Below are positions 1,740 through 25,742 of a stretch of 32,534 bases of DNA, in pieces (position 1 is the first letter of the stretch; the number at the start of each line of letters is the position of its first letter). The stretch comes from a virus (taxonomy: Duplodnaviria > Caudoviricetes), in the IMG/VR virus record IMGVR_UViG_3300019784_002254, positions 1 through 32,534 of that record. The stretch is one strand, 5' to 3'. The position numbers were made by a program, and so were the translations under genes. The notes beneath the pieces are model-generated. The model searched no databases, was not told the DNA's origin, and worked only from the letters and a program-made list of their open reading frames with translations.

Positions 1740-2135
1740 TTACGCGGCGGTGATGGTGATGGATGGTGACCAGCCAGTTGTAGGAATAAAATTGGCATTA
1801 GTGGATGGATTTGTGTATGTCGAGAAATCCCAAGTTTCCAGACAGCCATTAAACGGCCCATATTTATATGACCAGCTTCCACCAGAAAACTCTAATTGTC
1901 CTTGTTCTCCGTAACTACGGGTTTGATCGTTGCCACAATCTTCATAGTCAATAATTATTTGGCCAGAGAAAAGTGTGCTTGATTGCTTGCCTAAAGTAAA
2001 ACTATTAACAGAAATAGAGTTCGTACTCGCCACAGGAATCCCGCTAGGTGCGGGTGGAACTATTCTTTTTTTAGGAACATATAAATTAATTCCTCTTTTG
2101 AAGTTCCCGAGTTGTTTGGTTTTCTTGACTATCAT
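1740..2135 (-). CDS. Hypothetical protein, paralogue of 1244..1735
   Basis: 131-aa ORF with the same N- and C-terminal modules. Confidence 0.75.
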   Translation of the reverse strand: MIVKKTKQLGNFKRGINLYVPKKRIVPPAPSGIPVASTNSISVNSFTLGKQSSTLFSGQIIIDYEDCGNDQTRSYGEQGQLEFSGGSWSYKYGPFNGCLETWDFSTYTNPSTNANFIPTTGWSPSITITAA

Positions 2136-2155
2136 ATAGTCAATATAAAGTTAAA

Positions 2156-2497
2156 TTAACTTCTTTCCCAGCAAATATAACTTGAATTCACTCCACTAAC
2201 ACTAACTATTCCTACATAATTAAGATCACTTAAACTTCCACCATCACCACCTCCAGAAACAGTACTTGAAGCTAGAACAAAATTAAATGAATTACTAGCA
2301 GCAGAAGCTCCGTATTTCACATAAAGATTGCCGCTTTGTAAATTTTGAATAAAAAGTTCTTCGCGGTTAGCATTTGCTTCTAAAACTGTTCCGTTTGTTC
2401 CACTTACTGTAAAATTAGATATTGGGTCTGCTGGAGTAGCGTCGTAATCTAAATTTATTCTTTTTTCAGAAGCATCTGTTGTTGTGAGATTAGACAT
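2156..2497 (-). CDS. Putative small virion structural/decoration protein
   Basis: S/G/N-rich; ANANREELFIQNL...YVKYGA...WERS is shared with 2550..3050; GTGTAA at 2509-2514. Confidence 0.6.
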   Translation of the reverse strand: MSNLTTTDASEKRINLDYDATPADPISNFTVSGTNGTVLEANANREELFIQNLQSGNLYVKYGASAASNSFNFVLASSTVSGGGDGGSLSDLNYVGIVSVSGVNSSYICWERS

Positions 2498-2549
2498 ATT
2501 AAATATAATTACACATCAAATATAAAAATTGATATTATATTATATTAGA

Positions 2550-3050
2550 TTAAGTTCTTTCCCAAGCAATAAAGCTGGGATTATTTGTAACGCCAGTTGT
2601 TGTAACTATTCCAGTGTAAGATGAATCTGTATAAACATTGTATGTTCCAGTAAGACTAATGTTATAAGATGATAATGTTGGAGCTGCTCCTAATTTTACA
2701 AACAAACCAACTGGTCCTAGATTTTGAATGTAAAGTTCTTTTCTATTTGCGTTTGCTGCGACAGCTGTTCCGTGAGCAGTAGCTAGTGTGCTATTTGAGA
2801 TTGTTGATCCTTTTAATGGTACAACTGTAACTGAATCAGTTGCTGAACTCAAATCAAATTGATTAACATTAATTGAACTACTTTGTAGAATATTTAAAAT
2901 TCCACTAGCATAAGCTTCAGTATCGTTTACTTTGCTAAAATCAAATGGAACTCCACTTTGTCCAATGTCACTATTATTAACTAGAATAGTAGATTGATCC
3001 GACCAGCGGTTTGGATCGTTTCTGTCTACAGTGTTTGATGATATGCTCAT
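2550..3050 (-). CDS. Putative virion structural protein, paralogue of 2156..2497
   Basis: ANANRKELYIQNL...FVKLGA...WERT; GTGTAT at 3060-3065. Confidence 0.6.
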   Translation of the reverse strand: MSISSNTVDRNDPNRWSDQSTILVNNSDIGQSGVPFDFSKVNDTEAYASGILNILQSSSINVNQFDLSSATDSVTVVPLKGSTISNSTLATAHGTAVAANANRKELYIQNLGPVGLFVKLGAAPTLSSYNISLTGTYNVYTDSSYTGIVTTTGVTNNPSFIAWERT

Positions 3051-5249: not shown

Positions 5250-7970
5250 TTAATATATTGGAATAGATCCACTGTTTTGCATTAAAGTATAATTAATATG
5301 TTCAGATTTTCTAGAGAAATCATTTGTTTTAACTAAAAAGCTTCCAGTAAATACTGGGATATTATATTTTGTAAATTTAGTATTATCTGAAGAAATTTGA
5401 TTGATACTGTTAATTTTATTTCCAGCGTGAGCACTATGTCTATCTCCATAGTACAGATTAGATGGAATTAGATTTGTATTTATCGTATGTGTATCAATAT
5501 CTCCAGTTCTTATTTTACTAATTGCATTTCCATTGTATGGGAATAATCCAGATCCATATGTAGTTAATCCAGTATAAAAATAAAATCCTGTATATCCTGT
5601 ATAAGTATTCAAATAATAAGTATTATTTGCTTCTAAGAATAATTCTGGATATAATCTATTATCTATTGTATATGCTATTTTTATTCCAGTTCTAGCTACT
5701 CTATCTCCAGAAGGAATAAAGTTAAAATTAGGTATAGTTCTTCTAAATACAAATTTATTTTTATCAGATACTAGATTTTGCCCCGTCAAGTTAAAATATC
5801 CAGATATTGGATTTTGTTTAACTGAGAACCAACTAATATCATAAGCGTCTTCATTTACTTTAAATTTTATTAATCTATAATTACCACTTACTTGATTAAA
5901 GTTTGGTTGTACTATTTTTACTTCAGAAATATCTCCTTTTACTGCAAATGGTAATTCATTTGTTTTATCGCATTGTACAAAATTGTATGTATATCCCCTT
6001 TTAAGATAAAGAGTATTAATATTTTTATAAATAAAACCACCAGTTAATTGAGTTTCAACTTTATAGGTATTTGTTCCACTGAATAAAGAATAATATTCTT
6101 GTTTTAAATCAGTGGTATCAAATGTTGGCATTCTTTCATTTCTTATTTTAAACAATAAATCCAATTGAACTGCGCCAGTTAATGGATTAAATCCATTCTT
6201 AGTATTAGAAACTTGTCCATTAACATCAAATAATCCAGAGTATGCAATCAAATATCTAAGATATTGTTGCTCAGTATTTAATATAGTAATATGAGAATCT
6301 TCTTGTTCATCTAAATCTATAATACTTTCTCCATATATATCTGGAAAAGATCTAATTCCAGAATCATATTTTGTACGCAAAATTGTTCTTTGAGGAGCAA
6401 GATTAGATCCACTAGAATAAACTGTTAATCCAAAAATAGACGTATTTAGATTCTCAAGAGATCCATTAGAATTTAAAACTAATTGTCCATTTAAATTATA
6501 GTTTATTGAATTTCCAGTTTTTGCTAAAACAGAGATCTTATCTCCTTTTGTTGCTGCGTAATAATAATCATCAAATAAAATTTTAGTATTATTATCTACT
6601 ACGTAAGAATTAACTGGAATATAGGTATCTTTAGTCATGAAATTTAAAAATCCATTAACTAATTTAGTGCCAGTAACATCATTTAATATGATTGCTCCTG
6701 TTTTTAAATATACTTTAGATCCGTTAGGAAGAGAAGCACTTAAAGATCCAGTTTGACTAAAATAATGATTATAATTAATATCAATAGCACTATTTTTTCC
6801 TACTGTATAGTATCTAACTAACTCCCCACTATTTGGATGATTATTAGGATAGTAGAAATTACTAGTTTTATAATCTAAATCATTAATATCTAACATGCTA
6901 GTATCGCTAACACTAACATAAAAATTTCTAGGAGTATCACCAGTATTTGCTACTGAGAAATATTTATTTGCATTATGATTTAATACTCCAGAATTATTTA
7001 TTATAAAATTATTATTATAAAATTTAAATATACCAGTATTATTTTTTTGAAAATATGGACCATATGCTAAAGATGAAGTTTTTGGAGCTGTTCCAGTTGG
7101 AAGCCAATTTATATTACCAGAAAAAACAAATATTCTATATTTAATTTCATCCCTGTCTCTATATGCATATGGATTATCATAATAAGCATTCTTTGCTCCT
7201 AGTAAATTTGTATAAACAAAAGAGCATCTATTTTTAACACACCAATCTAAATCAGGAATATTATCTTGAAAGTAAAGTTTATTATAAGCAATTTTTTTTC
7301 CAGTCTCTATTGATTCTAATCCACTTATTTTAAAATTTGCAAATCCAGTAGTTGCTCCAAAATTAATCAACTCCTGTCTAGACCAATAGTTTCTGCCCAT
7401 GCTTGCGATTTGATATCCACTGTGATCTTGTAATTCATAAATATTTTTATAAGGAGATACAAATGGAGCAGAGGTAGGATCATTATCTACAACATATCCG
7501 CATATTCTAAATTTTGTACCTTTCGATAGACCTTTAGGATATTCATCATATTCTCCATAAGGGTATCCGCCAGAAATACTAAAATCTGCAATTATACTTC
7601 TATCTAAACAATATCCTTGTCTTCCTGCACTTGAGTAAGGAATTGTTCCAGAAGGATAAAATGTTTGAGCAAATCTTATTCTTAATCCAGTAGATTTGTA
7701 ATTTTTAAGCCAACCAGATTCATACCATTTTCCATAATAGTTATCTTTTCTATTATTTAATAATTCATTAATATACCGAGTATTATCTCTTTTAGATATC
7801 AATTCACCTACATTTGTTTTGCTAGATTCTACTATATAATTCATGCCAGAAGACAAATAATCTCTATCTACATAAGTATAGTATATATCATCTACTGATG
7901 CAGCCAAATCCAATTGCATCGGAGTAGTTGATGCACTAAAAGATTTTCTTGTTCCACTAGTTTTATTCAT
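5250..7970 (-). CDS. Large putative virion structural protein (906 aa)
   Basis: N/Y/S/T/G-rich with frequent SG/TG dipeptides, beta-rich composition; no enzyme motifs recognised. Confidence 0.6.
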   Translation of the reverse strand: MNKTSGTRKSFSASTTPMQLDLAASVDDIYYTYVDRDYLSSGMNYIVESSKTNVGELISKRDNTRYINELLNNRKDNYYGKWYESGWLKNYKSTGLRIRFAQTFYPSGTIPYSSAGRQGYCLDRSIIADFSISGGYPYGEYDEYPKGLSKGTKFRICGYVVDNDPTSAPFVSPYKNIYELQDHSGYQIASMGRNYWSRQELINFGATTGFANFKISGLESIETGKKIAYNKLYFQDNIPDLDWCVKNRCSFVYTNLLGAKNAYYDNPYAYRDRDEIKYRIFVFSGNINWLPTGTAPKTSSLAYGPYFQKNNTGIFKFYNNNFIINNSGVLNHNANKYFSVANTGDTPRNFYVSVSDTSMLDINDLDYKTSNFYYPNNHPNSGELVRYYTVGKNSAIDINYNHYFSQTGSLSASLPNGSKVYLKTGAIILNDVTGTKLVNGFLNFMTKDTYIPVNSYVVDNNTKILFDDYYYAATKGDKISVLAKTGNSINYNLNGQLVLNSNGSLENLNTSIFGLTVYSSGSNLAPQRTILRTKYDSGIRSFPDIYGESIIDLDEQEDSHITILNTEQQYLRYLIAYSGLFDVNGQVSNTKNGFNPLTGAVQLDLLFKIRNERMPTFDTTDLKQEYYSLFSGTNTYKVETQLTGGFIYKNINTLYLKRGYTYNFVQCDKTNELPFAVKGDISEVKIVQPNFNQVSGNYRLIKFKVNEDAYDISWFSVKQNPISGYFNLTGQNLVSDKNKFVFRRTIPNFNFIPSGDRVARTGIKIAYTIDNRLYPELFLEANNTYYLNTYTGYTGFYFYTGLTTYGSGLFPYNGNAISKIRTGDIDTHTINTNLIPSNLYYGDRHSAHAGNKINSINQISSDNTKFTKYNIPVFTGSFLVKTNDFSRKSEHINYTLMQNSGSIPIY

Positions 7971-7979
7971 ATAACGTTT

Positions 7980-8090
7980 AGTCCTGTTTTTCTCTATCTG
8001 GTTGGTAGGTCTAGACTCATCGCTGTCCTAGCGGACTTGATGAAAAACCTTATTAGATAGATGTATCGTCGACTTCTGTGTCAACAAACT
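7980..8090 (-). ncRNA. Predicted 111-nt exon/circular RNA of the permuted group I intron
   Basis: Lies between candidate omega-G (8091) and candidate 5' splice-site U (7980). Nested helices UCUAUCU/AGAUAGA, AGGU/ACCU, UCAUC/GAUGA, GUCC-GCUA-GGAC and hairpin UUGUUGAC/GUCGACGA. Confidence 0.45.
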
Positions 8091-8355
8091 CAACCTTCTC
8101 ATTTTTGTTATTTTTTTCTTTTTTAATAGAAAAACTCAATATTACTACTGAGATCGGACTATATCTTGCTTACTAGCTTTCGCTAATAAGACTGGGCGCT
8201 CGTGTCTCTGTTATTGTTACGGTAACTCAAGAGTTAGTCTCTACACCTTCTTACTTCATTTTTTTACCGTGAAGTAAGCTTGGCTCGGTATTGTCCACGC
8301 TTTTATGAATAATAAACGTGGGTTTCCACCGAATTCACCCAGTGGGACCACTTGT
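8091..8355 (-). ncRNA. Group I intron ribozyme core (IA-like), free-standing and ORF-less
   Basis: P3 CUGGGUG(8342-36)/CGCCCAG(8198-92); P AAUUCGGUGGAA; Q AAUACCGAGCC; R GUAGAGACUA(8244-35); S AAGAUAUAGUCC(8167-56); P5, P6a, P7.1 extension, P8 with GAAA loop, P9 with GUAA loop. Confidence 0.9.
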
Positions 8356-8385
8356 ACAATTTTAAAGAACTGTACATTATTACAC
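8356..8385 (-). promoter_or_regulatory. GTGTAA promoter motif plus boxA-like element of the ribozyme
   Basis: GTGTAA-N9-GTTCTTTAAAATTG, the same spacing as the tmRNA leader GTGTAA-N9-GTTCTTTAACATTG. Confidence 0.65.
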
Positions 8386-8432
8386 TTTATATATTAAATA
8401 TAGATTTTTTTTTTAAATTGTGCTTTGTACTC

Positions 8433-9425
8433 TCAAATAAAAGACTTATTTCCAGAGAATATTATCTCACAAAAATCTTTAAGCTCAGTAGTCATATAAT
8501 CTTTCATTGAATTAAAATCAATAAAATTTATATAACTTGGACCAGATTGATCATCTGTTATAATTTTATATTTATTAATCTGTTCTACGATGTCACATTT
8601 ATTGATAATAAGTTTCGTTGTTCCAGATATTTTGATAGCTTGTTTTAAATGATTTAATCTTAACCAATTAGCTATTCTTTTACGACCAGTAGTAGAACCA
8701 AACTCTTTACCTAGTTCAATTATCTTATTAAGATATTCGTCATTCCATAGTGATTCTGGAAATAATGGATCTACTCCACTTTTAGTATCATAAATTTTAG
8801 CTACGCCAATAATGTCTCTAATCTTCTTTGGGCTAAACCCAAGAGAGCAAGCGTTATATGGTAAAGTTTCACTACTTGTAACATATGGATAATCTCCATA
8901 ATTTATATCTAACCAAAAACTTTGCGCACCTTCACATAAAATTTCTCCAGATAATTCTCCATCCCAAATATATTTTTTATCTAAATATGAGCCAGCCATC
9001 TTTCCAATTCTTAACATTTTATCTGCATAAGCTGGAGCAATACCTTGACCAGTTGTACCAAGTTTTGGTTTTAGAAATTTGAGATCATATTGGATATGTC
9101 TTTCAGTAATAATATGAGCTTTAGGACTAACTTTAATTAAAGATGTATCAAATCCTTCTTTTTTAAGATAATCTATTTCATCGAAAAATTTATCAATGTT
9201 GATAACACAATTTGGACCAACGATACTAAGTTTATTTTGGAAAACTCCACAAGGAATAATATGAGTTTTATATTTCTTATCGTTAAGATAAACTGTATGA
9301 CCTGCATTGGGGCCACCATTCCAACGACAAACAATATCATAATTTTTAGAAATAGTATTACTTATTTTACCTTTTCCTTCATCTCCCCAAGCTAAACCAA
9401 AAATAATATCAACTGCTTTGATCAT
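8433..9425 (-). CDS. purA: Adenylosuccinate synthetase (short form)
   Basis: WGDEGKGK, GGPNAGHT, GTTGQGI, EGAQ, YPYVTSS, EFGSTTGRKR. Confidence 0.95.
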   Translation of the reverse strand: MIKAVDIIFGLAWGDEGKGKISNTISKNYDIVCRWNGGPNAGHTVYLNDKKYKTHIIPCGVFQNKLSIVGPNCVINIDKFFDEIDYLKKEGFDTSLIKVSPKAHIITERHIQYDLKFLKPKLGTTGQGIAPAYADKMLRIGKMAGSYLDKKYIWDGELSGEILCEGAQSFWLDINYGDYPYVTSSETLPYNACSLGFSPKKIRDIIGVAKIYDTKSGVDPLFPESLWNDEYLNKIIELGKEFGSTTGRKRIANWLRLNHLKQAIKISGTTKLIINKCDIVEQINKYKIITDDQSGPSYINFIDFNSMKDYMTTELKDFCEIIFSGNKSFI

Positions 9426-22327: not shown

Positions 22328-23469
22328 GCGCATGGATAGCAAAGTGGATCAAAAGTAAATCTTGTATAGAATCCATATCCAGCGAAAACACCTGATCCAC
22401 CAGCAGAATAATAAGGCCCTTGAAAACTTGTTCTAGATCCAGCATTACATCTAGCTTGAACATCAAGATGATATCTTGGAAATACATAATATACCGTATT
22501 GTTTCCATAAGCTCCAGTAGAAGTTAAGCATTGATATGATCCTGGAGCGCCACCAGCGAAAACAGAATTAAATAATAATGTAAATTTTGTTCCAACTGGC
22601 CCACTAGCTAATCCATATTCCGTGGATATAGCTCCACCATAACGACTACTTGTTCTCGTAATTTTTGACCATGCAACTCCAGCTGGATTTGACCAAGAAG
22701 TAGTTCCCCAAAAATGACCATTATATGTATTGCCATAGCCAGTACTATATACGCACGCAGCAACACAATTATCTGGAGATGGAGTTCCAACTGTATAAAA
22801 AAACCAATTTACTCCAGCAAATCGAGTTGCACTTACATTTGGTCCATCCGCACTGCATCCATGAGCTGGAATTAATTGATTTCCAGCACTCCATGTGCGA
22901 CTTGTATAGAAATTTCCACTTGCTGGCTCTGTTGCCCTTGAGGGAGTATTTCCAACTAAATTATAGCATGCGGAACTTGAGGCAAGATCTGGGCTATCCC
23001 AATAAGAAGTTGTTAATGATGATCCAGCGATTAGTGTGGTTGGTTCACTAAAATAATAAGGCTTTACATCTATAGTTATACCATTATGATTATATCCATT
23101 TAAGAAAGTATAACTAGCTGGACAACTAGTATTTGCAAATTCTGGAGGTTTATCTCTATCAATTACAGCAGTAATAAAATGATTAGTGGACATTCCTGCA
23201 GAATATAAATTAGCATAACTCATATAATTACTTTTACCAGCCAAAGCTGTGCCAACTAAATCATTTTCATTTCCCAAAACAAAAGTATAAGTTCCAGCAG
23301 TTTTTAAATCAAAAGATCCAATCCTAAGTTTATCATTACCCCAAGGATCACTTACATTATTACTATAATATAAATGTCCATTTCTTGCACTACTTCCATA
23401 ACTACTAAAACCACCATTATTAGTCACAGTAATAGCAAGAGCTTTTTTAGTGAAATCTATATAGTCCAT
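22324..23469 (-). CDS. Cys/Gly/Ser-rich putative virion surface or receptor-binding protein
   Basis: 381 aa, low charge, many G/S/T/Y and spaced Cys; lone minus-strand gene in a plus-strand block. Confidence 0.55.
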   Translation of the reverse strand: MDYIDFTKKALAITVTNNGGFSSYGSSARNGHLYYSNNVSDPWGNDKLRIGSFDLKTAGTYTFVLGNENDLVGTALAGKSNYMSYANLYSAGMSTNHFITAVIDRDKPPEFANTSCPASYTFLNGYNHNGITIDVKPYYFSEPTTLIAGSSLTTSYWDSPDLASSSACYNLVGNTPSRATEPASGNFYTSRTWSAGNQLIPAHGCSADGPNVSATRFAGVNWFFYTVGTPSPDNCVAACVYSTGYGNTYNGHFWGTTSWSNPAGVAWSKITRTSSRYGGAISTEYGLASGPVGTKFTLLFNSVFAGGAPGSYQCLTSTGAYGNNTVYYVFPRYHLDVQARCNAGSRTSFQGPYYSAGGSGVFAGYGFYTRFTFDPLCYPCA

Positions 23470-25524: not shown

Positions 25525-25539
25525 TTAAATAAAATTTAT

Positions 25540-25626
25540 GGAACGATGGCTGAGTGGTCTAAAGCAGAAGTTTACTAAACTTCCGATGGTTAACTCCATC
25601 CGTAGGTTCAAATCCTACTCGTTCCG
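25540..25626 (+). tRNA. tRNA-Ser(ACU)
   Basis: GGAACGA/TCGTTCC acceptor, GAAGT-TTACTAA-ACTTC anticodon arm, long variable arm GATGG/CCATC, G73. Confidence 0.9.
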
Positions 25627-25742
25627 AATTGATTAATATGAACGAAGAAAATTACGCAGGAGAATGTTTGCTTGTTGTTGGTATGATAATGATATATAGT
25701 ATTATTATATTTGTTATACTATATGAAAGTGTAAAGTAATAC

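Follow-up and report, generated by a model that had tools for sequence, protein, structure and literature searches.

A free-standing permuted group I ribozyme of a lake phage that probably back-splices a 120-nt structured RNA into a circle

Permuted group I ribozymes are a standard laboratory tool for the production of circular RNA. The engineered single-piece circularisers (PMC10415121; PMC11417360) are laboratory constructs, whereas the phage element described here is natural, diversified and combined with several types of cargo. The only natural permuted group I case that we found in the literature, going by the portions of it that bear on such RNAs, is the ND5-717 intron of mushroom-coral mitochondria (PMC6545197). 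This giant intron interrupts a gene and holds most of the mitochondrial genome in its P8; in the phage element, by contrast, the core is intact, the break adjoins P1 and a small non-coding RNA serves as the exon. The part of PMC10085705 that lists natural permuted RNAs names no group I ribozyme, and a literature search confined to freely accessible main texts gave no account of a natural, free-standing permuted group I ribozyme in a phage. Similar in their way of working are the CP group II introns (Roth et al., 2021, PMC8637638), which are likewise free-standing permuted bacterial self-splicers that yield a small circle and restore no gene. These introns use group II chemistry and reportedly never abut an ORF precisely, whereas the phage group I copies often end 2–25 nt before a start codon and carry a conserved, structured exon of which a linear allele exists. 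The phage element has no group II domains and its core is that of RF00028, so that the likeness lies in the working only.

Two further systems process mRNA leaders. In the c-di-GMP-controlled group I intron of Clostridioides difficile, as outlined in PMC3984707, alternative processing by a ribozyme in the 5' leader keeps or removes the ribosome-binding site. That intron has the normal exon order and an upstream aptamer, whereas no Rfam match to a riboswitch family was found for the phage element (E up to 10 on positions 7900–8450 and up to 5 on 14 relatives); this search covered known Rfam families, and an aptamer of another kind is possible. GIR1, in the account of PMC3679873, derives from a group I ribozyme, lies directly upstream of a gene and leaves a new mRNA 5' end by its reaction. 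A preliminary description of the phage locus had drawn a parallel with such lariat-capping ribozymes. However, GIR1 has neither a 5' nor a 3' splice site, its core is rearranged and it reacts by branching, which yields a 3-nt 2',5' cap, while the phage element keeps both splice sites and an ordinary P3–P7, and therefore the likeness is loose. The setting of GIR1, a twin-ribozyme intron with a homing endonuclease gene, is also absent, since the phage element is free-standing and the protein encoded downstream has no Pfam or PHROG match.

Architecture of the locus and of the ribozyme

The window, that is the whole stretch of 32,534 nucleotides analysed, is a 32.5-kb virus record that encodes a ribonucleotide reductase, RIIA, UvdE, a sigma factor, a tmRNA and tRNAs. 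Its sequence is contained in freshwater metagenomes and metatranscriptomes. Among its RNA genes, a tRNA called as Ser with anticodon ACU (25539–25627, plus strand) adjoins a tRNA-Asn; a tRNA-Ser with this anticodon is rare among bacteria. The phage tmRNA (3684–4070, minus strand) has a long predicted tag, AKTAKYKGHISARVSLVELTASVA, for which the resume codon was taken from the Rfam alignment, and is followed by an endonuclease-like ORF (3616–3065). Positions 1740–3050 of the minus strand hold two pairs of short paralogous-looking ORFs, one formed by a 131-aa ORF and an overlapping 212-aa frame with an N-terminal stretch in common, the other by 113- and 166-aa ORFs with a common motif.

The ribozyme occupies a 462-nt gap on the minus strand between purA (9425–8433) and a 906-aa ORF (7970–5250), and thus is intergenic and interrupts no gene. 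All features given below lie on this strand. The product of the 906-aa gene, which is co-transcribed with the exon described below, matches no Pfam or PHROG family; its comparison with a protein atlas gave laminin G-like clusters at 0.79, which is a lead only, and the putative structural role given to it in the preliminary description found no sign in the Pfam, PHROG or atlas comparisons.

When the 551-nt stretch around the gap was searched, a group I core (RF00028) was found at 8407–8135 with 83 bits against a gathering score of 50 (E 1e-21), a core that an Rfam scan of the whole window had missed. The guide-plus-core span is 8100–8349 and the core itself 8135–8342, with P3 (8342–8336/8198–8192), P4–P6, P8 (8190–8169) and P9 (8152–8135). 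The P3–P9 catalytic core includes the guanosine-binding site in P7 (8241–8235/8161–8156), which has a bulged A, and an insert lies between P7 and P3. In transcript order, a GTGTAA promoter-like motif (8380–8385) and a boxA match (8360–8370; consensus GYTCTTTAANA as given in PMC5725501) are followed by the internal guide sequence (8345–8350), of which GGUCC spans 8349–8345 and G8349 would form the U.G pair at the cut, by P3 to P9, by the terminal guanosine G8100 (omega G) of the 3' splice site 8100/8099, by a 120-nt structured exon (7980–8099) that ends in GGACU (7980–7984), and by nine bases and the ATG. Because the GGACU cut site (7980/7979) follows the core, the 5' splice site lies behind the core, which makes the layout permuted. 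The GTGTAA, 31 nt upstream of the guide, probably serves as the promoter of the unit. In the window boxA matches only once more, at the head of the tmRNA (4083), there too 15 nt after a GTGTAA, and this common leader indicates that the ribozyme unit is organised in the manner of a stable-RNA gene. Pairing in P10 is weak in the window, with one contiguous pair, and in 58 of 64 copies of the family the guide pairs with the first base of the exon. An ordinary intron with an upstream 5' exon was considered and rejected: the window has a single upstream match, which falls within purA at 150 nt from P3, and the matches of this kind in related copies are scattered.

In the reaction expected from this layout, guanosine would cut at 7980/7979 and release an mRNA that starts with the added G, followed by the 9-nt leader AAACGUUAU (7971–7979) and directly by the AUG at 7970. 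The freed U7980 would then attack 8100/8099, closing a 120-nt circle (8099–7980) and setting free the guide and core as a 250-nt RNA whose 3' G is reactive. An RNA of this form, consisting of guide and core and ending in G, can act as an enzyme, as do the L-19 and L-21 forms of the Tetrahymena ribozyme. The freed core could attack further accessible GGACU sites, which would be the first step of reverse splicing, and cleavage at the 3' site alone would produce an RNA led by position 8099.

A family of permuted copies

Four pattern scans yielded 110 distinct cores, of which 65 were judged permuted by eye; leaving out L192, in which the guide is shifted by one base, 64 copies were tabulated, with copies identical to the window merged. 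For this set, 18 terminal Gs and five cut sites were set by hand and three automatic picks were corrected. Many copies are close kin, and the counts are thus of sequences and not of events. RF00028 scored above gathering in 10 of 14 related loci, and one core pattern had no match (0) in bacterial genomes.

P1, formed by a U.G plus three Watson–Crick pairs, is present in 61 of the 64 copies in four sequence versions (48 GGCC/GGCU, 7 GACC/GGUU, 4 GCCC/GGGU and 2 GGUC/GACU, besides 3 irregular), and in 62 of 64 the guide also pairs with the base 3' of the cut. Selection of the targets by complementarity biases the count towards pairing; in the large marine subfamily, however, the target lies at a nearly fixed distance (exon of 75–80 nt) regardless of the guide. 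The loci with the same slot between purA and an orthologue of the 906-aa gene, namely the window, G001 copy 1 and G006, have U-A, G-C and C-G, respectively, at one aligned P1 position, and the cut site of G006 has C-G in place of U.G. That the pairing is kept and covaries in 61 of 64 copies argues that the splice site at GGACU is not due to chance, and the earlier placement of a 5' splice site nine bases before the ATG at 7970 thus stands.

In a rough tree of the cores the 9-row clade of the window is well supported. A single origin of all permuted copies was rejected (p-AU 0.0004, 28 versus 23 rows) on this rough tree, in which the bootstrap is unsettled and four rows that bear the label ordinary group with permuted copies. 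Several copies deserve mention in their own right. G001 carries two permuted ribozymes in one genome (84608 and 21983, minus strand) that differ in guide and exon type, each of which precedes a paralogue of the 906-aa family. L115, L182 and L325 form a separate branch of permuted copies with tiny exons (18–22 nt), of which a further copy lies outside the table at G002 47931. In L144, L155 and L321 a boxA-like motif is found within the P5 region and not in the leader.

The exon RNA, its ribozyme-free form and the predicted circle

The 120-nt exon is predicted to fold into a long stem, an internal loop and a three-way junction with two hairpins. The predicted ligation point falls within an 11-nt loop closed by a 3-bp stem, the sequence of which varies between copies yet pairs. 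An ORF on the circle was considered and dropped, as stops were read by eye in all three frames.

An argument for the circle comes from an allele that has no ribozyme. Locus L346 has purA, the same GTGTAA, a boxA-like leader and an orthologue of the 906-aa gene with 48% identity, but no core. In its place is an RNA with a strong fold (z −5.2). When the exons of G001 copy 1, the window and G006 are doubled, this RNA aligns with each of them across the ligation junction, with scores of 73, 50 and 45; of 200 shuffles, 0, 0 and 1, respectively, scored as high. With the same exons taken as linear sequences it scores 42, 34 and 28; against this RNA the near-identical strain L061 reaches only 29, and seven other exon types gave no match to it. 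The L346 RNA thus corresponds to a linear form of the ligated exon, so that one RNA would come in two forms, a ring closed by the ribozyme and a linear molecule with its ends at another place, clamped by a long end stem. As a ribozyme-free locus encodes the ligated exon, the circle (8099–7980) and not the new mRNA end is more likely the selected product. This argument rests on a single allele: a junction-pattern search for ribozyme-free alleles gave 33 matches of which only L409, the same as L346, was real, and a 16-mer of the ligated junction was absent from 397 loci.

Conserved exon folds are also found elsewhere in the family. In 28 distinct 76-nt exons of the marine subfamily, the outer stem is 96% paired and a pseudoknot 99%, against 5–48% in slid controls, and the inner helices are 73% and 67% paired in an ungapped count. 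No marine exon without a core was found (0 of 64 matches), and Rfam holds no family for any of the exons or for the L346 RNA. The marine exon RNA (L047, L165, L158, L179, L180 and kin) extends 75–80 nt after the terminal G, has three stacked stems and a covarying pseudoknot, is seen only as the exon of a permuted ribozyme and has a gene for a Lys-rich 125-aa protein downstream. L436 carries a ribozyme-free structured RNA with a terminal stem about 180 nt before an ORF at 1489, between two GTGTAA motifs; it precedes a distant paralogue of the 906-aa gene, and small RNAs thus accompany this protein family. The L436 RNA matches the L155 exon weakly (reached by 1 of 100 shuffles).

Taken together, the element is probably a free-standing group I ribozyme, with its core in front and its 5' splice site behind, that back-splices the 120-nt RNA into a circle, and this circle would be the useful product. 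A decaying or purely selfish intron remnant, in which the downstream GGACU is incidental, would agree with the broken P1 of rare copies (L212, L311) and with the lack of a circle in the contigs of six RNA runs. This is highly improbable given the compensatory changes in P1 and in the P1 extension, the conserved exon folds, the promoter-like motif and boxA of its own, and a reaction product found in lake RNA.

Transcripts, the predicted mRNA end and possible activity in trans

Six RNA runs were searched, as contigs only (X6, X11, X14, X15, X19 and X20), five of which are freshwater runs of 2017 and maybe come from one campaign. No back-splice joint (7980 to 8099) was present in these contigs. 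Contigs of X6, X11, X14 and X15 bridge 7980/7979 from the exon into the gene, that of X19 reaches 32 letters beyond this point and stops at 8011, and X20 has no cover at the cut site; the X11 contig stops at 8179, where DNA contigs break too. Since contigs cannot show an end at 7979, the bridging neither proves nor excludes the cut. In X14 and X15 contigs begin at 8099 with the 5' site uncut, that of X14 with one unaligned letter, and these runs hold no contig of the core of this strain. The DNA runs X2 and X7, which are not from the sample of X6, continue past 8099 with no loose end. The starts at 8099 hint weakly at RNAs cut at the 3' site that keep the 5' site whole, and cleavage at the 3' site or trans-splicing would account for this pattern better than cis splicing carried to completion. 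In one run, X6, an RNA contig ends at 8348 where the DNA continues. The contig depths of X6 (180–310 for the core, 79 for the gene and 4 for purA), like the stretches that lack cover, are unable to rank the RNAs and are not used as evidence.

X6 also contains a chimera. One contig, of low depth (about 7, back-calculated), leaves the ribozyme at 8099, after which 30 of 30 loose letters equal 23461–23432. With one shared A, the joint is placed between 8100 and 23462, right after a GGACU (23463–23467) inside the start of a 381-aa ORF (23469–22324) that lies 15 kb away. GGACU occurs at 24 of the 65,068 strand positions of the window, and G8100 had been named as the terminal G before the reads were examined. 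Reverse splicing, or attack by the terminal G, would first of all yield such a joint of the terminal G behind GGACU, as can be gathered from PMC3984707 and PMC3679873. The chimera is evidence for the guide as well as for the terminal G, and suggests that the ribozyme is active in the wild.

It could be read further, with the ribozyme acting mainly in trans: having freed itself at the 3' splice site, it would serve as a guided endonuclease or trans-splicer on other mRNAs, for which the site at 23462 pairs seven bases in a row with the guide against six for the cis site, and the contigs from 8099 with an intact cis site are what such activity would leave. Distinctly improbable as a main function, this is opposed by the conservation of the cis site (61 of 64 copies), by the two orthologues of the 381-aa gene, both of which start with MFYL and neither of which has the guide match (0 of 2), and by the 11 phage contigs in which guide-matching start codons are not enriched. 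Start-codon targeting as a trait of the family was rejected on these last grounds. As the target site is not conserved and no start-codon enrichment was seen, the chimera is read as off-target, and reverse splicing at sites with 4–6 complementary bases is a known side reaction according to the passages of PMC3984707 and PMC3679873 that deal with it. A wider reading, in which one transcript gives rise to a non-coding circle, a short-leader mRNA that starts with G and a multiple-turnover core enzyme that trims chosen phage mRNA starts, is quite unlikely; if true, such trimming would have been caught at the 381-aa gene.

The competing reading that concerns the locus itself, on which the preliminary description was built, is that the cut is maintained because it gives the 906-aa gene a near-leaderless mRNA fit for translation, possibly under the influence of guanosine levels. 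That description reported no GTGTAA or sigma70 promoter directly upstream of the gene. There is indeed no GTGTAA between the cut and the ATG, and no sigma70-type match in that interval among the 60 listed of 74 sites. However, the GTGTAA at 8385 and the boxA at 8370 head the ribozyme and contigs join the exon to the gene, so that the 906-aa gene is not promoterless. The 5' splice site exists and is conserved, so that an attack by guanosine at this point would set free the RNA G-AAACGUUAU-AUG, which is probably translatable; this part of the proposal survives as chemistry, whereas its standing as the purpose of the element is not supported. In the clade of the window (13 copies) the cut lies 4–9 nt before the AUG in ten, and the other three have a GTGTAA promoter of their own. 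These tight leaders suggest selection on the mRNA end too. When G001 copy 1 is added (65 copies), leaders of 17 nt or less contain no Shine–Dalgarno, promoter or terminator motif (0 of 26), those of 20–41 nt mostly contain an SD-like motif (21 of 26), and a terminator or promoter motif precedes the next gene in 15 of 65, including all 13 with leaders of at least 43 nt. In this phage group GTGTAA mostly lies 12–23 nt before many start codons, a clustering that would leave GTGTAA-led genes with almost no leader, provided that transcripts begin about 7 nt downstream of the motif. P1 moreover overlaps the ribosome footprint. The C. difficile intron provides a precedent, in so far as PMC3984707 describes it.

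Against these points, orthologues do without the cut. In G006/L188 a terminator and an own GTGTAA stand before the gene, which would be a start independent of the ribozyme and thus the case that the preliminary description named as refuting it, L346 has no core, and the paralogue locus L436 has a linear RNA and its own GTGTAA. Leaders range over 2–134 nt across the family, in which a short distance between cut and AUG is nothing unusual. By crude ORF calls, many genes of these phages have neither an SD nor a promoter motif close by nor coupling (11 of 37 in the window and 50 of 153 in G001). The 8099-started RNAs carry the site uncut. In the window, an SD-like AGGA that overlaps the P1 strand at GGACU would be freed by 3'-site cleavage but lost through the 5' cut. 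The suggested tie of expression to the GTP and ATP pools through the neighbouring purA does not hold up: purA is upstream in 3 of 46 copies and in G001 copy 1, and it is also present at the core-free L346 locus. Group I ribozymes are usually saturated by cellular GTP. A cut maintained for the sake of the mRNA end is therefore unlikely, and the mRNA with the short leader is most likely no more than a tolerated by-product of copies that lack a terminator, and not a GTP sensor.

In all, a phage family of at least 65 copies uses the permuted group I layout around several structured small RNAs, and a ribozyme-free allele shows the expected form of the ligated RNA. The chimera of the lake sample is a candidate footprint of group I reverse splicing in the wild. 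With a transcript of 400 nt, the role of RNA circles in bacteria becomes testable, and the family offers compact natural circularisers.
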